Origin: Candidatus Micrarchaeota archaeon
GTDB taxonomy: Archaea; Micrarchaeota; Micrarchaeia; Anstonellales; Anstonellaceae
Length of the DNA: 64,000 nt
Assembly: GCA_026413965.1 (NCBI GenBank)
Contig: JAOAJY010000001.1
Location: 57,642-121,641, forward strand
Direction of reading: 5' to 3'
Part shown: one piece after another, positions 24,630 through 34,279 of the stretch
Layout: each line of letters starts with the position of its first letter
Numbering within the stretch: position 1 is the first letter of the stretch
The notes under the pieces: model-generated
What the model was told of the DNA's origin: nothing
The model's input: the letters and a program-made list of their open reading frames with translations, nothing else
Database searches by the model: none
Made by a program: the position numbers and the translations under genes

Positions 24630-24959
24630 TCACTTTGCCTTGCAATATTTAAATTGCTTTTTGCCTCCGCATGAGCAAAGGTGCTCTGCTGCCTTCTGCC
24701 TTTTGCGCAGGCGGACTTTGGTGTTCAGCCCAGGGACAGAGGGCATTCCGCATGATTTGCAAAACAGGGCGCGCTGGCTTTTTTGCATGCGGCAGTTGTA
24801 TCGCATGGAGAGCCTTCTTGCAAGATAAACATAGCGCTTGGCGTAATTCGGCTCTCCTGCCCTCAAAGCTGAAGCTGCCTGCCGCAGGAGTATGTCTATC
24901 CTCTCGTAGATTATCTGTCGAAGGCTGCTTTTCTGGGATTCCACGCAAAAATTCGGCAT
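24630..24959 (-). CDS. rnp4: RNase P protein component 4 (Rpr2/Rpp21)
   Basis: It reads IIYERIDILLRQA...AKRYVYLARRLSMRYNCRM...FCKSCGMPSVPG...CSCGG (zinc ribbon). The start was set at the ATG at 24959, because the upstream part of the track ORF overlaps the tRNA gene. Confidence 0.8.
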   Translation of the reverse strand: MPNFCVESQKSSLRQIIYERIDILLRQAASALRAGEPNYAKRYVYLARRLSMRYNCRMQKSQRALFCKSCGMPSVPGLNTKVRLRKRQKAAEHLCSCGGKKQFKYCKAK

Positions 24960-25017
24960 TTGCGCAATAAAAAGATTGGCATGGGCCCGACGAGATTCGA
25001 ACTCGTGACCTACAGCT

Positions 25018-25045
25018 GTCCAAGACACTTTGCGAGAGCGTGCCA
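25018..25045 (-). other. tRNA-Ile intron 2 (28 nt, canonical position 37/38)
   Basis: BHB motif: the anticodon stem is followed by a central helix CTTA/TTGG (C-G, U-G, U/U mismatch, A-U). The 3-nt bulges are TAT and ACA. The inner helix is GGCAC/GTGTC with an 11-nt loop. Confidence 0.65.
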
Positions 25046-25053
25046 TATAAGAC

Positions 25054-25083
25054 ATGCGAGCAGGCAACTTGGAGTTGCCAGCA
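25054..25083 (-). other. tRNA-Ile intron 1 (30 nt, non-canonical position 29/30)
   Basis: BHB motif: the central helix is GCGG/TCGC, with 3-nt bulges CAT and ATG. The outer helix is AGA/TCT. The inner hairpin is GC-(T/T)-GGCAACT, loop CCA, then AGTTGCC-(T)-GC. Confidence 0.65.
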
Positions 25084-25135
25084 TGCCGCTCTAACCAGCT
25101 GAGCTACGGGCCCAGGAGAAATAGGTGGAAAAAGG

Positions 25136-25920: not shown

Positions 25921-26847
25921 ATGAAAAAAGCAGCCAAGCAATTTAATCTTTTGTCCAAAAAAACAGCTGTGGAAGAATTTCTTGAAGAGTATTTCATAAA
26001 CCCGATTTTTGACAGGGTTGGGTATAATCCTGTGAATACTTTTGCCTATGCTGTAATTGCACTGGCATCTGTTTATGCTATTTGGAGGATTATGCGCAAC
26101 AGGTATGATTTCGCAAGCAAGGAATTCCTGCTTGGAGCCGCGGCTTTTGTCCTTCTTGGGACCACCTCGCGTGTGCTGACTGATTTGTCGGATGCTGGAG
26201 CTATAAGGCAGGCTTCCCTTTCCGGAGGGATTTTGGGGGCAGTTTATGGCGCAATTGAAAGCAGAGGGGTTTTCCAATACGGATATTTGACCGTGACTCC
26301 TGGGATATATGTGGTGATTGCCCTGCTGTTCCTTGCCTCAATCGCAGTCGGGGAAGCCATGAGGATGCGGATTTTTCCCGCGGTGGCTGGATTTGCCCTA
26401 TGGATTCCCTGCTTTCTTTTGCTTGCGCCATTCATGAAAAATTTCGCCTATGGATTGCTTGCCTTGCTTTTGGCTTTGGTTGGCTCAGCAGCGGCTTTCC
26501 AAGCGCTTGCAAGGCTTGGGGCAAGCATGAAAATGCACCACAAGCTGGCGGTTGCAGGGCAGGCTCTTGATGGAGCTGCAACTTTTGTGGTGATTGACGT
26601 GTTTGGGCCGCTTTCAGGAAAGCCTTATTTTGAGCAGCACGTTCTTTCCTCTGCCATAGGGCATGCCACTCCCCTTGGCTTTGGGCTGTTTTTCGCATTC
26701 AAGATTGCCATAGCCTCGTTGATAGCCTACATGATTTCAAAAGAAAAGCTTGAGGCAAAAGATGCCGCCCTTTTGCTTGTGGTGATAGCCATAATGGGAT
26801 TTGCCCCTGGAATAAGGAACCTTCTGAGGATGCTTTGCGGCACTTAA
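25921..26847 (+). CDS. Polytopic membrane protein (possibly the DUF63 family)
   Basis: The 308-aa ORF has the N-terminal block FLEEYFINPIFDRVGYNPVNTFAYAV. The DUF63 assignment is from memory only. Confidence 0.5.
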   Translation: MKKAAKQFNLLSKKTAVEEFLEEYFINPIFDRVGYNPVNTFAYAVIALASVYAIWRIMRNRYDFASKEFLLGAAAFVLLGTTSRVLTDLSDAGAIRQASLSGGILGAVYGAIESRGVFQYGYLTVTPGIYVVIALLFLASIAVGEAMRMRIFPAVAGFALWIPCFLLLAPFMKNFAYGLLALLLALVGSAAAFQALARLGASMKMHHKLAVAGQALDGAATFVVIDVFGPLSGKPYFEQHVLSSAIGHATPLGFGLFFAFKIAIASLIAYMISKEKLEAKDAALLLVVIAIMGFAPGIRNLLRMLCGT

Positions 26848-27591: not shown

Positions 27592-27733
27592 TCCCGTTGG
27601 GAGCGCTTTTCTTCAGCTTGGGCTTGCCGCCTTTTTTGGGAAGGCAGCCTGAAAGCGAAACAATCAGCAATTCGGCCGCTTTGGCAGCCCATTCGCTAAG
27701 GACAAGCATAGGATCTCCTTTGAAAAGAAAAAA

Positions 27734-27943
27734 TCACTCTGGCGGCGGTGGAGGGGGCGCCTCGCCATCCCCAAAATCCTCAGGCATGAGAGGCGTGGCT
27801 TCTTTTTCCTGCTGTGCGCTTTTGACCATTTTTCCTTCTGGGGGAGCTGGGGGGCGGCTGTCATCTGCCGAGTCGCTGGGCTTGCTTTGAGCGCAGCCTG
27901 CCAAAAGCAGAAAGGCAGCCAAGAAAACCAATAGCCCTTTCAT
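27734..27943 (-). CDS. Small putative lipoprotein, proline/acidic-rich
   Basis: It starts MKGLLVFLAAFLLLAGC (lipobox-like LAGC) and ends PPPPPPE. It overlaps the upstream PKD gene by 4 nt. Confidence 0.5.
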   Translation of the reverse strand: MKGLLVFLAAFLLLAGCAQSKPSDSADDSRPPAPPEGKMVKSAQQEKEATPLMPEDFGDGEAPPPPPPE

Positions 27944-30201
27944 TGAACCGCCGCCTTTTTGCTTGTTTGCTGTGCCTGTGGCACGCACACGAATACCTGG
28001 CAGCCGTTTTTGTCAATATGAGAAAAAACAGGAACAAGCCCAGGCAGGCAGGTGGCGGTTGTTTGGCATGATGCTGGATAGACCTGCACCGTCAAAGCCG
28101 CCTGCGCGCTTGCGCCCTGCTCATCATAGACCGTCATATATACAGTGTAGGCGCCAGGCGCGCTGTATGAGTGGGTGGCTGATGCAGTCTGAACCACTGC
28201 CATAGGCTTGGGCATTCTTGGATTTTCATCTCCCCATATGAAAGAATAAGTCAGCTGCCTGCCCTCTGGGTCGTATGCTGAGATTGTCCAGGTTCCTTGC
28301 TGCCCAACAGCAAGCTGTGATGGCCCTGAGACGCTGGTGATGACTGGCGGGAGATTTTGCTGGATTTGGCGCTTGACGGTTATCACACCGCTTTCAGAAA
28401 ATGGCTCTCTGGAATGCATGTGTATGCCTACTCGGATTTTGTACTGCCCTTCTGGGAAATTTGATGGTATATTCCATGCTGCCTGCCCTGCCGAAAGCGG
28501 GTTGTTTCCGCAATCTATGTTTGTGGCTGCTCCGGTATTGACATTTATTGCCTGCACGCAGGAGAGCCTGCCATTCAAATCAGAGGAAACTGACCAGGCA
28601 ATCATGTAGGTTTGGCCTGCTACGAATTCCTCGCCTCCAATCGGAGAAGACACCTTTATGCTGTAGCTTGGAGCATTCCGGTAAACCTGAACCCTGTAGG
28701 TTGAGCTGGCAGATGCCCCTTGCTCATCCACAACTGTGAATGTTATGGTGTAAGTTCCTGCTGAATTGTAGGTGTGAGAGATGGTTGAGGACTGCTCTGC
28801 TGCAGCGCTTCTTCTTGCAAGCTCAGCAGGCTCATCTCCCCAAGTGACATAATAAGTCAGCTGCCTGCCCTCTGGGTCGTATGCTGAGATTGTCCAGGTT
28901 CCTTGCTGCCCAACAGTAAGCTGTGATGGCCCTGAGACGCTGGTGATGACTGGCGGGGGATTTGGCCTGGAAGGTTGCAGATATATTAGGGCGTCATTGT
29001 ATCCGCCATCAAATTTTATGCCGTCATCTGCTTCTATCGTGAATTTGTTTCCCTTCTGCGTTATGCTGAAATAATGCGGGTTTGTGGAAAAGGCTTTTTC
29101 GTACCATCTGCCATTCCATTGGGTTTGTATGGAAAGGACAACTTCCTCTCCCTCTTTCAGATAGCCGATAGGCGTGACTCTATTGACCCAATTATTGGCG
29201 CCTGTGAATGTCCCGAGATTTTTGAAATTCGGCTTTTCTACCGCAATGACCGAACTTCCCGAGGTGTCATACCATGCAACATTTATCTCGTATTCTCCAG
29301 ACTGCGGGATTATTATTCTCTGCTGCGGGGGCTCTGGAACAGGGGCAAGAAATACAGTGACGCTTATGCTTGCAGTCTCGCTTTCGCCTGCATCATCCAC
29401 AACTTTGACGACTATCTTATAGGTTCCTGCCGAATTGTATGTGTGGGTGAATGAAGCGGTCTGTGAGGCTGGCGTGCTGGCAGAGGATCCCTGCTTATTG
29501 AACTCGTCGCCCCAAGTGACATAATAAGTCAGCTGCCTGCCCTCTGGGTCGTATGCTGAGATTGTCCAGGTCCCTTGCTGCCCAACAGCAAGCTGTGATG
29601 GCCCTGAGATTTTGGTTATCACAGGAGGGAGATTGGGCTGAGGCGGGGATGGCGGCTCGTCCTTCCCAAATCCGAGCCTGCATGATGAGGCTGCCTTTAT
29701 CCAGTAAGCTTTGCCCGGCTCAAGCGTGCTTGAGTACCTGTATGGGCTTTGGGCAGGACCGCTTGCGTAATAATGCCAGGGGCCAGAGATTATCTTGCAG
29801 TCGCCTGCATAGTCTGTGATTTCTGCCTTGTGGGGCGGCGCCCCAACAAGATTCCATCCTGAAAAAAGCTCTTTGTTCGCAAAGATCGGCGAAGCTGAAT
29901 AAGCGTACCTGCACTCCCTTGTCCCCTTTATCCAATATCCCTCTCCTGGCTTAAGAACGGCTTCTTTGATGTATCCTGACTGCGAAAGCCTCCAAGCATA
30001 TTGGGAGGCACCGCAGATAAAAGCCAGCTCTTTGACAGGCAAATCTGCTGAAACTGAAATCATGTTCCATCCGGGATAGATTTGCACCTCATAGTTTTGC
30101 GGAGCAGGGAGGGTAAGCGCTGCAGCTGCGGGAAAAATAAGCAACATCGCAACAAGAATTGCCCCAAATCTGTTGCTTTCAAGATTCGCTTTTATTGCCA
30201 T
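27940..30201 (-). CDS. Secreted multidomain surface protein: double GWN...YWIK module, three PKD-like repeats, C-terminal 4-Cys module
   Basis: The signal peptide is MAIKANLESNRFGAILVAMLLIFPAAAA. The repeat PPVIT.(I/V)SGPSQL.VGQQGTWTISAYDPEGRQLTY..(T/I)WGDE occurs three times. The C-terminal end reads CQTTATCLPGLVPVFSHIDKNGCQVFVCVP. Confidence 0.8.
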   Translation of the reverse strand: MAIKANLESNRFGAILVAMLLIFPAAAALTLPAPQNYEVQIYPGWNMISVSADLPVKELAFICGASQYAWRLSQSGYIKEAVLKPGEGYWIKGTRECRYAYSASPIFANKELFSGWNLVGAPPHKAEITDYAGDCKIISGPWHYYASGPAQSPYRYSSTLEPGKAYWIKAASSCRLGFGKDEPPSPPQPNLPPVITKISGPSQLAVGQQGTWTISAYDPEGRQLTYYVTWGDEFNKQGSSASTPASQTASFTHTYNSAGTYKIVVKVVDDAGESETASISVTVFLAPVPEPPQQRIIIPQSGEYEINVAWYDTSGSSVIAVEKPNFKNLGTFTGANNWVNRVTPIGYLKEGEEVVLSIQTQWNGRWYEKAFSTNPHYFSITQKGNKFTIEADDGIKFDGGYNDALIYLQPSRPNPPPVITSVSGPSQLTVGQQGTWTISAYDPEGRQLTYYVTWGDEPAELARRSAAAEQSSTISHTYNSAGTYTITFTVVDEQGASASSTYRVQVYRNAPSYSIKVSSPIGGEEFVAGQTYMIAWSVSSDLNGRLSCVQAINVNTGAATNIDCGNNPLSAGQAAWNIPSNFPEGQYKIRVGIHMHSREPFSESGVITVKRQIQQNLPPVITSVSGPSQLAVGQQGTWTISAYDPEGRQLTYSFIWGDENPRMPKPMAVVQTASATHSYSAPGAYTVYMTVYDEQGASAQAALTVQVYPASCQTTATCLPGLVPVFSHIDKNGCQVFVCVPQAQQTSKKAAVQ
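28245..28350. repeat. Intragenic near-identical DNA repeat, copy A (PKD-like repeat core)
   Basis: The 106 bp differ from copy B by 1 nt (aataagtcagctgcctgccctctgggtcgtatgctgagattgtccagg...). Confidence 0.9.
28839..28956. repeat. Intragenic near-identical DNA repeat, copy B
   Basis: This copy shares the same core. It also shares the upstream ccccaagtgacat extension with copy C. Confidence 0.9.
29511..29609. repeat. Intragenic near-identical DNA repeat, copy C
   Basis: This copy shares the same core with 1 mismatch and diverges after gccctgaga. Confidence 0.9.
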
Positions 30202-30211
30202 TCAAATCACC

Positions 30212-31441
30212 TCAATTTGGAGGCATTGGAGGCGCCTCTTCTAAATTGCCATAAAGCCTGCATGAAGAACCCACTTTTATCCAGTAAGCTTTGCCTGGCT
30301 CAAGGGTCTGAGAGTATGCATAAGGGCTTGCGCCTGCGCTGGTGTCATAATGCCAGGGGCCAGAGATTATCTTGCAGTCGCCTGAGTATTCGGATATTTT
30401 GACCGTGCTGGACGGAGCCCCAACCAAGTTCCAGCCAGGAAATAATGGTTTGAGGGAAAGAGAATAGGCAGGCGCAGAAACCTCAAACTCGCAGCTTCTT
30501 CTGCCTTTTATCCAATATCCTGCTCCTGGCTCAAGGTACTCTTCTTTTGAGTATCCAGAGGGCAGAAGCAACCATGCCTGGGCAGATGTGCCGCACTTGC
30601 CAGAAAGCTCTTTCATTGAGAGCTTGGAATTGACTGGAAGGGAAACCATGTTCCACCCGTTTTTTATGTTCAAGACGAACTTTGCCTCATCTTGCGGGGG
30701 AAGCGGAGGCTCGCTTTGCTCAGCTCTGACTTTCACTTTCGCCCTTGCCTGCCCAACAAGGTGCTCCTGCTCAGAGCAGGCTCCGGCGCTATTGCAGCTT
30801 GAAAACAGGTAGTAGACTGAGATGGTCGCGAATTTCACGCCTGGCGAGATTGCTGTGAAATAGGCAGAAATGCTTGCGCTTTCGCCGCTGGAGAGCGTCA
30901 TGTAGTCTATCCTTTCTTGGAAGCTTTGGCGCTTTCCGCTGGATGATGCATGCGCTGGAAACGCCTTGCCAACGCTGTCAACAACCCTCAAGGATTGCTG
31001 CTCCTCTTTGCCCATGCCTTCTTGGATGCTTTTGCTTGCGAAAAAAGAGGGCTTGCCTGAAGAAAGTTCTGCAGCATCAGACAACTGCGTGATGATTTTC
31101 AGCCTGTAGATGGAGTCCGTGCGCCCGTCGCTGACCAAACTGACTTTTCCGCCCACAAAAATTTGCTGATTCTGTTGCGCTTCGGATGGCTCGGCATGTA
31201 TTGAAACCGATACTGTTGGCATATTGGCTGGCCTGCAGCCATAAATTTCGCACCCAAACTCATCAAGATGGGAAAAATATGGCTCATAGCCTAAGGCGCA
31301 TTTTGCCATTGAAATGCATCGCTCATCCGATTTTGCCTGAGCCTGTGGCACAAGCAGCAGGACTGCGATAAGCGCAACCAAACCGGCACTTCTCATCAAC
31401 AGATGAATCACCAGCCAAGCTTTTGCTCTGGGTTTCTCCAT
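30212..31441 (-). CDS. Secreted protein: N-terminal 4-Cys module, unknown middle region, C-terminal double GWN...YWIK module
   Basis: It has a signal-like MRSAGLVALIAVLLLVPQAQA, and the start may be that internal Met. It has CISMAKCALGYEPYFSHLDEFGCEIYGCRP. The C-terminal 165 aa or so are alignable to the N-terminus of the 753-aa neighbour, with 38-nt identical DNA patches. Confidence 0.7.
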   Translation of the reverse strand: MEKPRAKAWLVIHLLMRSAGLVALIAVLLLVPQAQAKSDERCISMAKCALGYEPYFSHLDEFGCEIYGCRPANMPTVSVSIHAEPSEAQQNQQIFVGGKVSLVSDGRTDSIYRLKIITQLSDAAELSSGKPSFFASKSIQEGMGKEEQQSLRVVDSVGKAFPAHASSSGKRQSFQERIDYMTLSSGESASISAYFTAISPGVKFATISVYYLFSSCNSAGACSEQEHLVGQARAKVKVRAEQSEPPLPPQDEAKFVLNIKNGWNMVSLPVNSKLSMKELSGKCGTSAQAWLLLPSGYSKEEYLEPGAGYWIKGRRSCEFEVSAPAYSLSLKPLFPGWNLVGAPSSTVKISEYSGDCKIISGPWHYDTSAGASPYAYSQTLEPGKAYWIKVGSSCRLYGNLEEAPPMPPN

Positions 31442-31465
31442 CGGCTCTTATTTAAAAAGAAAACT

Positions 31466-31507
31466 CGGTCCGGCTGCGGAACCCATATATAAGCTTTTCG
31501 CGGTCCG
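31466..31507. promoter_or_regulatory. Two copies of the palindromic heptamer CGGTCCG flanking a TATA-like element
   Basis: cggtccg occurs at 31466-31472 and 31501-31507. catatataag at 31483-31492 lies between them, in the 82-nt gap between the wHTH gene and the secreted-protein genes. Confidence 0.35.
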
Positions 31508-31523
31508 ACGCGTTGCGCAAAAT

Positions 31524-32615
31524 TCACCTGAAAATTTGCCCGTTTATTTCCGCAAGAAGATTCCTCCCGAATGGATGCAGCTTGACTATGTTTTTCCGCT
31601 CAAGCGAGCGCAGGTTGCGAAGCAGGCTTGTTTTTGGAATCAGCAGCTTGTGCTGAATTTGCGAGCGCTTCGCCCTCCCGCCTGACCGCATAAGGAACAG
31701 CACTATCTCCCTCTCCCGCTCGGAAAGCGTGGATAGGACCGCAGTTGCCTTTGGGCTGGATGCATCATAAATGCCTGCATCAGTAAGCTGCTTGGGCGCG
31801 CGATTGCCAGGCTTTTTGGCTGCTTTGCCCTTGGCTGGAGCTTTGTTTTCTTTTTTCTCTTGCTGTTTGGAGGCTTTCATTGAGCCCATGCCCCTAAGGA
31901 AAAGCCACAAGCCAAAAGCAGCAGCCAGGCCCACTATAGCCATAAGCAAAAGGTCATCTTCTGAGGACTTGTTTCCCATCTCAATTGAAACCATGGTGGT
32001 TTCTCCTGCAACTATGCTAGCCTCCTGCGAGCCTGCCTTCCCCTTGTGGTAGGCAGAAACCAGGCAAGAGCCTGCCGGCAGGGCTTTGAACAGGAACTCG
32101 CCTGCCTCTCCTGCCAAAACTTTGCTCCCTCCATTTATCCTTGAATAGTTGAAGGCAGAGGAAGGGCAGGAGACCGAGATTGTGGCTTGCGGGACAGGAG
32201 AATCTTTGCTGGCTGCCCTGCCTGCCAGGCTTCCTGCTGGATAAAAAATCACTGTTAGGTTGCTTTTGCCTGGGGCTGCGAAATCCTCGGTTGCCGCAAA
32301 ATCTATGCCGCTTGTGGATGGAAAATCAATCAAGGCATCCAGCTGGTGGCTCCCCCTATCAACAAACAAGACAAAGCCGCCAGAGTAATCAGTGATTGCG
32401 CGGTAGATGGTGTCGGACTTTTCAGAGCGCAGGAGAAGCACCACTGGAACCTGCGAAGCTGGTGTTCCGTTTGAGAATACTGCATAAACCCAGACCGTAT
32501 TTGGGAGGCTGGGGACAGAAGGAGGGCCTTGCTGGGCTTCTTGATGGAAAGGGTCGTCTTGGGCAAAAAGGATAGAAAAGGCGAAAAAAGCTAGCAATAC
32601 AGGCCTCATGAGCAT
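31524..32615 (-). CDS. Membrane-tethered winged-helix protein: signal peptide, two CarboxypepD_reg-like beta-sandwich domains, a TM helix, and a cytoplasmic wHTH
   Basis: The signal peptide is MLMRPVLLAFFAFSILFAQDD. The TM helix is LLLMAIVGLAAAFGLWLFL, followed by a K-rich linker. The C-terminal LSEREREIVLFLMRSGGRAKRSQIQHKLLIPKTSLLRNLRSLERKNIV is a MarR/ArsR-like HTH. Confidence 0.65.
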   Translation of the reverse strand: MLMRPVLLAFFAFSILFAQDDPFHQEAQQGPPSVPSLPNTVWVYAVFSNGTPASQVPVVLLLRSEKSDTIYRAITDYSGGFVLFVDRGSHQLDALIDFPSTSGIDFAATEDFAAPGKSNLTVIFYPAGSLAGRAASKDSPVPQATISVSCPSSAFNYSRINGGSKVLAGEAGEFLFKALPAGSCLVSAYHKGKAGSQEASIVAGETTMVSIEMGNKSSEDDLLLMAIVGLAAAFGLWLFLRGMGSMKASKQQEKKENKAPAKGKAAKKPGNRAPKQLTDAGIYDASSPKATAVLSTLSEREREIVLFLMRSGGRAKRSQIQHKLLIPKTSLLRNLRSLERKNIVKLHPFGRNLLAEINGQIFR

Positions 32616-32649: not shown

Positions 32650-32952
32650 CTATTTCGCCTCTTCTTTCACCAGATACTTGACTGCCAAAAATATGACAAA
32701 TGCGATTATCAGGAAATCCACCAGCGCCCCAAGGAAACTGCCAACCATGAGCTTCGCAGGGCCTGCTTCAAGGACAAACGCTCTCCAGTCCCCTCCAGTG
32801 GCGGAAAGCAGAACTCCTATGACAGGCATTATTATGTCGCTCACAAGCGCGCTGACCAGCTTGGATGCGGCTGTGCCTATTATGAACGCCACCGCAAGCC
32901 CGACAACCTTGTGCTTGTTCAAAAAAGCCAAAAACTCTTCCGCAAAACCCAA
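32650..32952 (-). CDS. mscL: Large-conductance mechanosensitive channel MscL
   Basis: It has GLAVAFIIGTAASKLVSALVSDIIMPVIG and a second TM helix FLGALVDFLIIAFVIFL. The track ORF overlaps the helicase gene, so the start was provisionally set at the TTG at 32952, which is preceded by AAGGGTGG. Confidence 0.8.
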   Translation of the reverse strand: MGFAEEFLAFLNKHKVVGLAVAFIIGTAASKLVSALVSDIIMPVIGVLLSATGGDWRAFVLEAGPAKLMVGSFLGALVDFLIIAFVIFLAVKYLVKEEAK

Positions 32953-32992
32953 AGAACCACCCTTACTGATCGGTAGCCGAAAGGATAAAATC

Positions 32993-34279
32993 CTACCTCC
33001 CTCTGCCGAAATAGTGGTGCCCGCGCGAAGGAACTTCCTTTTGGGAATGCTGCCTTGCATGCATCTGCTTTTGCGGCGCTTTGTGGCGCGCGCTTTTCCT
33101 GAAATCAGCCCCAGCCTTTGCCGATGCAGAAAAGCTTTTCCTTCTTGGAATAAGCTCCTGCTTTATTTCCACCCTCAAAGGCTCTATTTTGCAGCCAGCC
33201 AAATTCTCCACCATTTTGACCAGATGAGTTTGGTCAAAGAAAACCAGGCTTATCGCCTCTCCGTTTTTCCCCATCCTTCCGGTCCTGCCAATCCGATGAA
33301 GATAGACATAAGGGTCGTCGGTCATGTCATAATTGAAAACGTGAGTCACCCCCGTTATGTCCAGCCCCCTGCTTGCAAGGTCGGTCGCCACCAGGATATT
33401 CACGTGGCTTTTGCGGAAAGCCTCCATGGACCGGTCGCGCTTGTTTTGGCTCATGTCTCCATGAAGCGCCATGGAGCTGAAACCCCTGTCCTGCAGTATT
33501 TGGTTGAGCCGCTCTGCTCCTCTTTTTGTCCGCACGAAAACAAGCGCCAATTTCGGCTTTTTTTGGGAAAGCAGCACAAGAAATGCGTTTAGCTTGTCGA
33601 ATTTGGAGACCTCAACGTAGTGCTGCTTTATGGACTTGACTGAAAGAGAGTCCTCGCTGACCAAAACCTCCTGCGGGGAATTCATGTATTTTTTTCCAAG
33701 AGCAAGGATTTCTGCTGGCATGGTTGCCGAAAAAAGAAGAGTCTGCCGGCTTTTGGGGGTCTTTTGCAGAATTTTCTCTATGTCGTCTATGAACCCCATG
33801 TCCAGCATCCTGTCTGCCTCATCCAAGACAACTATCCTGATTTCCGAAAGGGAAAGCGTCCCCCTCTCCATATGGTCCAATATCCTTCCTGGCGTCCCCA
33901 CCACTATGTCCACGCCTTCATCAAGAAGCCTTATCTGCTTGTCTATCTCCTGCCCGCCATAAATTGCGGCTGTGCGGAAAGGAAGATGCGCCCCTATCTT
34001 CGAAATCTCATCGCTGATTTGGACCGCAAGCTCGCGGGTTGGCGCCAGGACAAGCGCGCGGGTTTTGCGCCCTCCGCTGCCTTCAGCAGCAAGCTTCTCC
34101 AAGATGGCAATCCCGAAAGTTGCGGTCTTCCCTGTCCCTGTCTGCGCCTGCCCTATCAAATCCTCCCCTTGCAAAAGCAAAGGCAGGGCTTTCTCCTGGA
34201 TGGGCGTTGGCTGGGAAAAGCCCATTTCCCCTATAGCCTTGATTATCTGTGGGCAGAGCCCAAAACGGCTGAAACTCAT
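32993..34279 (-). CDS. DEAD-box ATP-dependent RNA helicase
   Basis: It has the Q motif FSQPTPIQ, AQTGTGKT, PTRELA, VLDEADRML, SAT, ARGLD, and HRIGRTGR. The start was set at MSFSRFG. Confidence 0.9.
   Translation of the reverse strand: MSFSRFGLCPQIIKAIGEMGFSQPTPIQEKALPLLLQGEDLIGQAQTGTGKTATFGIAILEKLAAEGSGGRKTRALVLAPTRELAVQISDEISKIGAHLPFRTAAIYGGQEIDKQIRLLDEGVDIVVGTPGRILDHMERGTLSLSEIRIVVLDEADRMLDMGFIDDIEKILQKTPKSRQTLLFSATMPAEILALGKKYMNSPQEVLVSEDSLSVKSIKQHYVEVSKFDKLNAFLVLLSQKKPKLALVFVRTKRGAERLNQILQDRGFSSMALHGDMSQNKRDRSMEAFRKSHVNILVATDLASRGLDITGVTHVFNYDMTDDPYVYLHRIGRTGRMGKNGEAISLVFFDQTHLVKMVENLAGCKIEPLRVEIKQELIPRRKSFSASAKAGADFRKSARHKAPQKQMHARQHSQKEVPSRGHHYFGRGR

Follow-up and report, generated by a model that had tools for sequence, protein, structure and literature searches.

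A predicted transmembrane transcription regulator and its adjacent surface-protein operon in Micrarchaeota and other DPANN archaea

The DNA analysed here is a 64-kb window (meaning the whole stretch of sequence) from a metagenome-assembled genome of Candidatus Micrarchaeota (Anstonellaceae-like). Open reading frame (ORF) calling on the window found four same-strand genes, G1, G2, G3 and G4, bearing out an earlier interpretation made from the letters alone (hereafter the sequence-only reading), which had described four consecutive minus-strand genes. G1 encodes a predicted membrane-spanning protein with a C-terminal domain of the winged helix-turn-helix (wHTH) type, G2 and G3 encode secreted proteins that share a GWN/YWxK double-repeat domain, and G4 encodes a small lipobox protein. 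A conserved promoter with position-fixed GGWCC boxes lies between G1 and G2. Together, G1 and the operon probably form a switch, so far uncharacterised, between the cell surface and gene expression, because their pairing and a matching promoter motif recur across distant DPANN archaea. The coordinates of the features are given in Table 1.

Table 1. Genes, protein domains and candidate transcription and translation signals of the G1-G4 locus, numbered from the first letter of the window.
Feature	Position	Strand	Description
TATA-like box TTTTAAAA	32637-32644	-	21 nt before ATG 32615, 27 nt before ATG 32609; read from sequence
G1	31524-32615	-	363 aa; NCBI start 32609, giving 361 aa (P0001)
G1 beta-sandwich 1, extracytoplasmic (aa 39-136)	32208-32501	-	AlphaFold2 strands with pLDDT >90; Foldseek pilin/adhesin-type sandwiches
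G1 beta-sandwich 2, extracytoplasmic, CarboxypepD_reg-like (aa 145-212)	31980-32183	-	Pfam PF13620, AlphaFold2, invariant Cys pair C150/C184
G1 transmembrane helix (aa 219-243)	31887-31961	-	Hydropathy and AlphaFold2 helix
G1 Lys-rich disordered linker, cytoplasmic (aa 244-287)	31755-31886	-	Length and sequence vary across the family
G1 wHTH, cytoplasmic (aa 288-362)	31530-31754	-	AlphaFold2 H-H-(b)-H-H-b-b fold, pLDDT about 95
G1-G2 spacer	31397-31523	-	Conserved promoter plus leader for the operon G2-G3-G4
Proximal GGACC box	31502-31506	-	9 nt upstream of TATA, abuts BRE-like GCGAAAAGC; candidate operator half-site
TATA box 1 TTATATAT	31485-31492	-	BRE-like CGAAAAGC just before
Second GGACC box	31467-31471	-	35 nt downstream of the first; then TTTTCTTTTT
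Second TATA-like box TTTTAAAT	31450-31457	-	After the second GGACC box and TTTTCTTTTT
G2, long ORF	30212-31441	-	409 aa
Shine-Dalgarno motif GGTGAT	31407-31412	-	10 nt before ATG 31396
G2, likely form	30212-31396	-	Secreted, 394 aa, from ATG 31396 (Met16 of the long ORF)
G2 GWN...YWxK double-repeat domain	30242-30688	-	Four conserved Cys; from alignments; no Pfam model
G3	27940-30201	-	753 aa, secreted paralogue of G2
G4, GTG-start ORF	27734-27988	-	84 aa
G4, ATG form	27734-27943	-	69 aa, Pro-rich lipobox protein (MKGLLVFLAAFLLLAG followed by C)
T-run TTTTTTCTTTT	27723-27733	-	Directly after the G4 stop; read from sequence

Gene calls and the products of G1 to G4

G1 and G2 are 100% identical to the NCBI proteins N3F07_00525 and N3F07_00520, respectively. 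G2 most likely starts at Met16 of its long ORF, because a Shine-Dalgarno motif precedes that codon, the G2 homologues of relatives have the same layout (AGGTGAT-N5-7-ATG), and the product called at NCBI has 394 aa (P0228). With this start, the G1-G2 spacer is 31397-31523 and not 31442-31523. G2 and G3 are separated by 10 nt, and the G3 stop overlaps the G4 ATG at 27943 in the tetranucleotide ATGA; G4 was therefore taken as the 69-aa form and not the 84-aa form. The sizes given in the sequence-only reading (409, 753 and 84 aa) thus stand for G3 and need correction for G2, most likely, and for G4, whereas the short gap between G2 and G3 and the 4-nt overlap that it described between G3 and G4 both hold, the latter with the 69-aa G4.

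The same reading had called the four genes a tight unit. Strand alone gives this unit no bounds, since the minus strand also carries MscL (32650-33060) and a DEAD-box helicase gene on the upstream side and MarC on the downstream side. Transcript boundaries are plausibly set by a TATA-like box before G1, the promoter before G2 and a T-run after G4. TTTTAAAA is a candidate promoter of G1 itself and would give a near-leaderless mRNA, and TTTTTTCTTTT is a candidate archaeal oligo-T terminator closing the unit.

For G1, the order proposed from the letters was a signal peptide, two sandwiches, one transmembrane (TM) helix, a Lys-rich linker and a C-terminal winged helix, and the analysis confirmed it. 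CarboxypepD_reg (PF13620) scored 32.2 bits on aa 137-213, against a gathering cut-off of 32.3. The AlphaFold2 model, computed from an input of 26 family members, had a mean predicted local distance difference test score (pLDDT) of 85.8. It consisted of an N-terminal hydrophobic helix (aa 6-17) and the two sandwiches, TM helix and wHTH with the limits shown in Table 1; aa 249-278 were disordered (pLDDT <50). Foldseek searches against the PDB returned generic pilin/adhesin-type sandwiches, which define the fold class only.

Weak wHTH matches were found on G1 at about aa 297-352 in Pfam (DUF7343, TrmB, HTH_27), and NCBIfam added further weak ones (ArsR, Lrs14, Sta1). A profile restricted to the wHTH gave weak matches to CodY, SlyA/MarR and Lrs14 winged-helix structures (E=5e-4 to 3e-3) and to Lrp-type winged helices. 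G1 was not assigned to the MarR family, which calls for an above-threshold Pfam MarR/MarR_2 match and for dimerisation helices around the wHTH: HTH_27 scored 12.8 bits vs 22.2, other matches were similarly below threshold, and the wHTH of the model stands alone, with no such helices on its N- or C-terminal side. The Pfam and NCBIfam scans listed no OmpR-type (Trans_reg_C) match on G1. No G1 paralogue was found elsewhere in the window.

The hydropathy of G1 aa 222-240 was 2.54, and the TM segment is kept in 59 members of the family. The net charge of G1 is -3 before the TM helix and +8 after it, with 11 Lys and Arg residues within the 40 aa that follow; in 54 of the 59 members the Lys and Arg count is likewise higher after the TM helix than before. 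All four N-X-S/T sequons of G1 lie in the ectodomain, N-terminal to the TM helix, and sequon density across the 59 members is 1.21 per 100 aa outside and 0.31 inside. An invariant Cys pair is located in ectodomain sandwich 2. Because of this positive-inside charge and the sequon and Cys distribution across the 59 members, the indicators point to a type I membrane protein with a cytoplasmic wHTH, in line with the arrangement first suggested, a DNA-binding domain inside and an ectodomain outside.

The ninth Foldseek match of G1 was SlaB, the S-layer anchor of Sulfolobus (8qox_B), aligned over the whole model at E=5e-6. SlaB resembles G1 in having a signal sequence, serial beta-sandwiches, a single TM helix on the C-terminal side and a gene beside surface-layer genes. 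Unlike SlaB, G1 has no coiled-coil stalk, and it carries a 120-aa cytoplasmic part in which a long linker is followed by an 80-aa wHTH absent from SlaB; the TM-score was 0.20. Classification of G1 as a SlaB-like S-layer anchor was rejected on these grounds despite the E-value. Looser forms of this idea give the main rival explanation of the locus: G1 would be mainly a structural stalk or anchor of the envelope that holds the GWN proteins and the lipoprotein, its wHTH would have a non-transcriptional task such as tethering the nucleoid or the locus or binding a cytoplasmic partner, and the promoter would merely be that of a highly expressed operon. The adhesin/pilin-type sandwiches of the ectodomain suit such a role. 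The low TM-score and the missing stalk do not, and the Lys-rich flexible linker fits a reach to DNA. Taken with the conservation data below, we regard this explanation as unlikely.

G2, G3 and G4 each have one N-terminal hydrophobic segment. G2 had no Pfam match at E<=1 and no NCBIfam match. It consists of a signal peptide, a small Cys-rich module, a beta-sandwich with a disordered insert, a C-terminal GWN/YWIK double-repeat domain and a PPMPP tail; its AlphaFold2 model (pLDDT 82.7) showed a small Cys-rich hairpin, the sandwich with its insert and a confident C-terminal beta domain. Foldseek on G2 returned generic Ig/macroglobulin-like sandwiches that again indicate fold class only. The signature of the double repeat, here called the GWN domain, is GWNxVSxP ... 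GYWxK ... C. G3 begins with a GWN domain (aa 37-180; E=3e-46 with the GWN hidden Markov model, HMM), followed by three PKD domains (aa 190-283, 414-506 and 616-707) with two intervening domains, and ends with a Cys-rich module. The three PKD copies gave E=2.8e-32 and 111 bits for PKD_4 (gathering threshold 27) and 83 bits for PKD (23.5), and the Pfam matches of G3 were confined to PKD/Ig-type families. The C-terminal Cys-rich module of G3, CQTTATCLPGLVPVFSHIDKNGCQVFVC, resembles the N-terminal module of G2, CISMAKCALGYEPYFSHLDEFGCEIYGC. With the GWN domain and the Cys-rich module common to both, G2 and G3 are domain-shuffled paralogues, which tblastn supports, and the PKD-rich G3 looks like a lineage-specific elaboration of G2.

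The sole relatives of the GWN domain found beyond DPANN are in bacterial substrate proteins of the type IX secretion system (T9SS; P0243-P0264), with annotations such as Rhodothermales and Cloacimonetes. The domain was considered as the T9SS sorting domain itself (Por_Secre_tail, PF18962), but in bacterial homologues the two lie apart, the GWN-like part of P0245 for example being aa 86-221 and its Por_Secre_tail aa 384-453, so that this identity was rejected. GWN/YWxK thus appears, from the alignments, to be an unannotated extracellular module shared across domains of life. G2 and G3 were also compared with the canonical S-layer protein of Micrarchaeota. That protein has PF05123, whereas G2 and G3 contain neither S_layer_N (PF05123) nor S_layer_C (PF05124), and the assignment was rejected; S_layer_C matches were confined to genes downstream of distant G1 homologues.

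G4 contains the lipobox LLAGC within MKGLLVFLAAFLLLAGC (L-A-G-C), an internal PPAPPE and the C-terminal tail EAPPPPPPE. Its lipobox agrees with the archaeal motif [L/V/I][A/S/T/V/I][G/A/S]C after a signal peptide (PMC12462473), and positional orthologues of G4 have LSFGC, LSSGC, LFAGC or LLVGC. Lipoproteins are reported to be prevalent in DPANN, as is the occurrence there of the lipidation enzyme AliA reported (PMC12462473), and G4 may be lipidated by AliA/AliB. About 0.9 kb from G4, past MarC, lies a plus-strand gene for a 308-aa membrane protein (25921-26847) that has 56% identity to a gene of locus L001 annotated PF01889 (AliA_AliB, lipoprotein lipidation). From this identity the gene can be assigned to the AliA/AliB family, and its position is kept in relatives. 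An acidic Pro motif, [DE]xxPPxPP or PPxxP, ends nearly every GWN-domain protein and occurs twice in the mini-lipoproteins, including their extreme C-terminus; in the window it is found at the G2 C-terminus (30212-30260), after the G3 GWN domain (about 29640-29670) and in G4 (27734-27900). It may serve as a signal for sorting or as a peptide for docking.

From these properties G2 to G4 would be surface or adhesion proteins. None of the four proteins fell into a well-annotated family of unrelated function in Pfam, NCBIfam or PADLOC, an outcome that would have spoken against the grouping. PADLOC gave one weak match, of the wHTH only, between G1 and a CARF-HTH model (E=9e-4), and none for G2-G4; an anti-phage defence system was rejected because no significant PADLOC match was obtained for any of the four.

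Conservation of G1 and its gene neighbourhood

A word-indexed search recovered 90 full-length G1 homologues or clusters, at 38-54% identity apart from one outlier at 29%, and every named one was from Micrarchaeota. When a profile was run against 1.84 billion representatives (clusters at 50% identity), 5898 matches were obtained at E<=1e-3, and 275 clusters or more reached E<=1e-30. Among the best 150 matches, the majority were 320-430 aa long and covered the profile end to end, while some weaker ones were unrelated proteins with multiple CarboxypepD_reg domains. All source names belonged to DPANN (Micrarchaeota, Woesearchaeota, Nanoarchaeota archaeon), and existing annotations of members read "helix-turn-helix transcriptional regulator" or "uncharacterized membrane protein". 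Features still present in members with 20-30% identity were the signal sequence, the two sandwiches together with the Cys pair, the TM helix, a basic linker that varies, and the IPKTSLxRxLxxLExK motif. The alignments indicate that G1 is a conserved family of full-length proteins and not a chance fusion, and the family appears to be large, uncharacterised and, among source names, so far found only in DPANN.

Conservation in alignments A1 and A2 peaked in the recognition-helix region of the wHTH and not in the ectodomain. This region of G1, LLIPKTSLLRNLRSLERKNIV, is nearly invariant across the 90 homologues, a pattern that argues against a mainly structural anchor.

Gene order was compared in 17 loci from the GTDB (Micrarchaeota set) and in a distant set of metagenome loci obtained with a subfamily alignment (about 25-35% identity), together with L021, L022 and L068-L070. 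The order kept in Micrarchaeota has CTP synthase first and then, in one direction, DEAD-box helicase, MscL, G1, one or several secreted PKD/GWN proteins and MarC, followed by an AliA/B-like gene in the other. In the Micrarchaeota set, 14 loci extend for at least 2 kb downstream, and 13 of these have a co-oriented GWN protein downstream of G1. The NCBI locus tags of G1 and G2 homologues were consecutive in three genomes. When the GWN HMM was run on six-frame translations of all loci (about 570 kb) and the window, matches were obtained only downstream of G1 homologues and co-oriented with them; there were none elsewhere in these loci or in the rest of the window.

Distant homologues were inspected because the order in Micrarchaeota could be inherited synteny. 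The GWN domain was present downstream of G1 in seven distant loci. In the Woesearchaeota-like subfamily, the first downstream ORF was secreted-like in 21 of 33 loci, vs 26 of 169 other ORFs (odds ratio 9.6, Fisher P=4e-8, with related loci counted as independent). In L021 (Nanoarchaeota, with SpoIIM upstream) the G1 homologue is followed by four genes matching S_layer_C, and in L022 (CCA-adding enzyme upstream) by a secreted protein of 436 aa in which the GWN domain is clear. L069 has CARDB and LamG proteins and an 85-aa lipoprotein. L070, flanked by KH and RIO1 genes, has an 811-aa CARDB/S_layer_C protein with a GWN-like end and a 104-aa lipoprotein after G1; in L068 the same KH and RIO1 flanks are present and the cassette is absent.

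Pro-rich mini-lipoproteins with two PPxPP motifs and a lipobox were found in the Micrarchaeota loci L004, L006, L008, L013, L014, L017 and L020 and in L069, and Cys-rich ones ending in ...FDDxxxxEPPxxPS in L027, L028, L041, L050 and L070. In both clades the cassette is thus closed by a mini-lipoprotein with a C-terminal [DE]xxPPxxP tail, and PPxPP ends nearly all G2 homologues. From these comparisons the conserved core appears to be G1, a variable large surface protein (often with GWN) and a PPxxP-tailed mini-lipoprotein. Chance or purely inherited synteny was rejected as an explanation, since the linkage holds in distant clades whose other flanks differ. Co-occurrence in relatives, a check proposed along with the sequence-only reading, was found far beyond chance, distant DPANN clades included. 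Two of these observations would also suit an anchor: S_layer_C matches occur in the downstream genes of distant relatives, and the PPxxP tails on G2 and G4 homologues may serve as docking peptides.

A second class of surface proteins was noticed after G1 homologues in L021 (9236-16985), L034, L062 and L024. Their C-terminal end consists of a Cys-rich module (...ECxSNxCxNGxC...) and, after it, an amphipathic segment (...ILNWLKNLF). Several match S_layer_C, and the class may represent S-layer proteins of Nanoarchaeota-like lineages.

The spacer promoter and its GGWCC boxes

Of 18 Micrarchaeota loci, 17 have nearly the same sequence in an element of about 75 nt directly after the G1 stop, although the proteins on either side are only 42-59% identical. 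In the window, TCGGACCGCG occurs once, CGGACCG occurs in three copies, two of which flank the spacer TATA box, and there are two GGWCC-N4-10-TATA composites, both in the G1-G2 spacer. The second GGACC forms an inverted repeat with GGTTC (31483-31479). The Micrarchaeota consensus comprises, in order, aTCGGACCGCG, aAAGCTTTATATA, tGGGtCCcGG, a short GC hairpin with compensatory changes, TCCTTTTTAAGCAAA and aACCGGcGCAGC. Next, in most Micrarchaeota loci, comes a strong hairpin whose sequence is not conserved, and after it a run rich in A, AGGTGAT and the ATG.

Loci of the distant subfamily have up to three TGGACC boxes spaced by 30-31 nt. The proximal box is 8-9 nt upstream of TATA with a stretch resembling the TFB recognition element (BRE) between them, e.g. 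cCCAAGt, and a GGWCC-like element often follows 2-3 nt past TATA. The position of the proximal box relative to BRE/TATA therefore recurs in Micrarchaeota and in distant DPANN loci, and the box pattern recurs across clades whose spacers cannot be aligned. Within 150 nt after the G1 stop, GGWCC was enriched 14.5-fold in the 18 Micrarchaeota loci (binomial P=1e-24) and 12-fold in 31 distant loci (P=7e-27), both P-values being optimistic as related loci were counted as independent. Neither G1 itself nor the sequence upstream of it or beyond the 150 nt showed any enrichment, and autoregulatory boxes ahead of G1 were accordingly rejected.

Boxes that keep a set position next to TATA in such diverged clades are not easily accounted for if no factor binds them sequence-specifically, which is a further difficulty for a mainly structural G1. 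On the other hand, the near-consensus BRE/TATA, the 5' hairpin and the strong Shine-Dalgarno motif are typical for abundant surface proteins and would be expected if G1 were an anchor beside a highly expressed operon.

The promoter data also bear on whether adjacency means control. G1 and the operon might be neighbours through co-function or inherited order only, with the targets of G1 elsewhere or nothing nearby, and with the boxes bound by another factor or belonging to an RNA leader or small RNA. The wide inherited synteny in Micrarchaeota is compatible with this, as are the retention of the promoter without a downstream surface gene in L048, L051 and L068, the second GGACC of the window, which falls in a hairpin with a T-run after it, and the conserved hairpin and T-run after the promoter in L068, L046, L055 and L031, which suggest a short transcript of its own. 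However, the linkage survives with other genes on both flanks (KH/RIO1 for the Woesearchaeota-like loci, SpoIIM for L021 and the CCA-adding enzyme for L022), the boxes are upstream of or overlap TATA and hence lie mostly outside any transcript, and the GGWCC enrichment is limited to the 150 nt after the G1 stop. We consider this explanation improbable.

Between TATA box 1 and the second TATA-like box, the window (31440-31523, minus strand) and L004-L020 share a short GC hairpin with compensatory variants, e.g. CTGCGTTTCGCAG vs TTGCGTTCCGCAA. A T-run between the two boxes might terminate G1 transcripts or act in attenuation, either TATA-like box might be the one that fires, and the downstream part of the spacer looks like a structured 5' leader. 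Different leaders were seen in distant loci. In the Woesearchaeota-like loci L046, L055, L031, L039/L043 and L068 (7180-7290), a conserved GGCTATC comes after the promoter, and behind it are a hairpin whose apex is GAACCAAAGTTC and a long T-run. In L068 the element persists without a surface gene, between the G1 homologue and RIO1. It has no Rfam match and might act as an attenuator or give a short non-coding RNA. In L025, L026, L030, L040 and L062 another conserved leader, composed of CTCAACCTAAACC and a GGAGTA...TACTCC hairpin, follows the same promoter type, and the next called ORF there has about 184 aa without a signal sequence. Rfam found no family for spacer or leader, returning one tRNA in the window at the gathering threshold and tRNAs plus one chance match in six loci at E<=0.1. 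Scans for bacterial sigma-70 promoters and intrinsic terminators gave background counts, as these models are inapplicable to an archaeon.

Proposed role of G1

We propose that G1 acts as a transmembrane transcription regulator of the one-component type, with local control over the adjacent operon of surface proteins and lipoprotein, with a probability of roughly 0.5. This is proposed because the recognition-helix region is nearly invariant, the promoter boxes are fixed in position and the downstream surface operon is conserved. A cleavable or anchoring signal sequence would place both sandwiches outside the cell, and the single TM helix and the long Lys-rich flexible linker would keep a MarR/Lrs14-like wHTH under the membrane. 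We infer that the wHTH binds GGWCC, one box being at a fixed distance upstream of BRE/TATA and another often just downstream of TATA, and that binding at this promoter, directly after the G1 stop, would set the transcription of G2-G3-G4. The long, basic, disordered linker would let the tethered domain reach DNA beneath the membrane of a very small cell. The signal may be an envelope or contact-related state reported by the ectodomain, perhaps the surface proteins or their PPxxP tails.

Archaeal activators such as EarA (at the fla promoter), TFB-RF1 and Ptr2 are soluble and bind just upstream of BRE, and a box directly downstream of TATA is a typical position of archaeal repressors. The G1 loci resemble those of EarA, TFB-RF1 and Ptr2 in the short repeated sites right upstream of BRE/TATA, the small wHTH and the surface-structure operon as target. 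Unlike those of the soluble activators, they often have an extra box directly past TATA. Since both activator-like and repressor-like positions appear to be present, either activation or repression would be compatible with the layout.

Transmembrane transcription regulators (TTRs) form a recognised class that is reported to be widespread in archaea, with about four per genome (Demey et al. 2023, PMC10269533). G1 shares with them a predicted DNA-binding domain (the AlphaFold2 wHTH with its weak matches) and at least one TM segment; that it may also regulate transcription while localised in the membrane is suggested indirectly by the conserved GGWCC-BRE/TATA promoter right behind its gene. As in ToxR, TcpP, CadC and ArnR of Sulfolobus, one chain combines an extracytoplasmic domain, at least one TM helix and a cytoplasmic DNA-binding domain, and nearby genes for surface structures are the predicted targets. 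In ToxR, CadC and TcpP, however, an N-terminal cytoplasmic OmpR-type wHTH is followed by the TM helix and a C-terminal periplasmic sensor, whereas in G1 the order is reversed, with signal sequence and ectodomain first and wHTH last. The G1 wHTH is MarR/Lrs14/TrmB-like (below family cut-offs) and not OmpR-type, and the tandem CarboxypepD_reg-like ectodomain is unlike that of the TTRs named. Classification of G1 as a ToxR/CadC-type regulator or a MarR-family member was consequently rejected by domain order, wHTH type, sub-threshold matches and architecture. The phrase "ToxR-like logic with inverted polarity", used in the sequence-only reading, is a fair description, to which the conserved GGWCC promoter after the G1 stop adds a link between regulator and target.

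The same reading had recognised no characterised system of this composition. This needs qualification as the general TTR class is known; our literature search found no paper on the G1 family, its cassette or the GGWCC promoter. The principle of a transmembrane transcription regulator is thus not new, while for this family, cassette and cis-element no published description was found. Among the products, the three bona fide PKD domains of G3 and the canonical lipobox of G4 resemble known PKD surface proteins and lipobox lipoproteins of the AliA/AliB pathway (PMC12462473); the GWN/YWxK domain, without a Pfam model, and the undescribed PPxxP-tailed mini-lipoprotein set the cassette apart from them.

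Bacteria and eukaryotes both have well-established cases of membrane-tethered factors that undergo regulated intramembrane proteolysis. A variant of the regulator proposal would treat G1 as a latent factor of this kind, in which an extracellular cue triggers a cut within the TM helix or close to it, after which the soluble linker-wHTH fragment acts on the adjacent promoter and possibly on others. The single-pass TM helix and the long disordered linker ahead of the wHTH fit such a protein, and a lone wHTH without dimerisation helices may need release or clustering. Against this, no gene for a site-2 protease, a rhomboid or another protease was linked in any locus examined, the variable linker has no evident conserved cleavage motif, and known ToxR/CadC-type regulators can work tethered (PMC10269533). 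We therefore judge release by cleavage to be distinctly improbable.

Several points weigh against local control by a tethered G1. All its wHTH matches are under the Pfam and NCBIfam cut-offs, so that the assignment stems from the predicted fold and weak profile matches, and wHTH domains can also make protein-protein contacts. Simple rules (charge, sequons, Cys, hydropathy) were the basis for the calls on topology and on cleavage of the signal peptide. The wider synteny in Micrarchaeota (CTP synthase, DEAD-box helicase, MscL, MarC) means that those loci are not independent observations, and the enrichment P-values treat related loci as if they were. About one third of the distant loci, e.g. L068, have no secreted gene directly downstream. 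The boxes are degenerate in some loci (GAACC, AGACC, GTTCC), and they could be bound by another factor or be part of a strong, unusually extended promoter that drives high expression of a surface gene. The structural-anchor explanation nevertheless fits the conservation pattern and the operator-like boxes less well than does a regulator.

In DPANN, few regulators are recognisable and the control of host-facing surface proteins is essentially unknown. The cassette supplies a candidate regulator of wide conservation, a predicted operator whose simple core is GGWCC at a set distance from BRE/TATA, and defined target genes, and thereby a regulator-operator-target hypothesis that is directly testable in lineages that are mostly uncultivated. 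Two protein modules missed by the databases were defined, the GWN/YWxK double repeat, also present in bacterial T9SS substrates, and the PPxxP-tailed mini-lipoprotein. The comparison further suggests an exchange hot spot for surface proteins of the GWN, S_layer_C/CARDB and LamG types in the slot downstream of the regulator.

Speculatively, the ectodomain may monitor its own surface products through their acidic PPxxP tails, because the large proteins and the lipoprotein carry such conserved tails. In its fullest form, which we put forward tentatively and hold to be rather unlikely, the G1 family would be a dedicated surface-to-genome feedback circuit, maybe ancestral to DPANN, whose ectodomain reads the cell's own coat or host contact (perhaps by binding PPxxP tails) and which uses GGWCC operators on both sides of TATA to set directly the transcription of the variable slot for the major surface protein. 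If so, no conserved signal-transduction system would have been defined for DPANN before it, and it would give a handle on the control of the host-facing surface in genome-reduced symbionts.

Away from the cassette, the one Rfam tRNA of the window lies at 24982-25113 on the minus strand, spanning 132 nt with 49 bits. ARAGORN reported zero tRNAs in the window. The element is probably an intron-containing archaeal tRNA, and an ORF for an Rpr2-like RNase P subunit (24630-25067) overlaps its neighbourhood.

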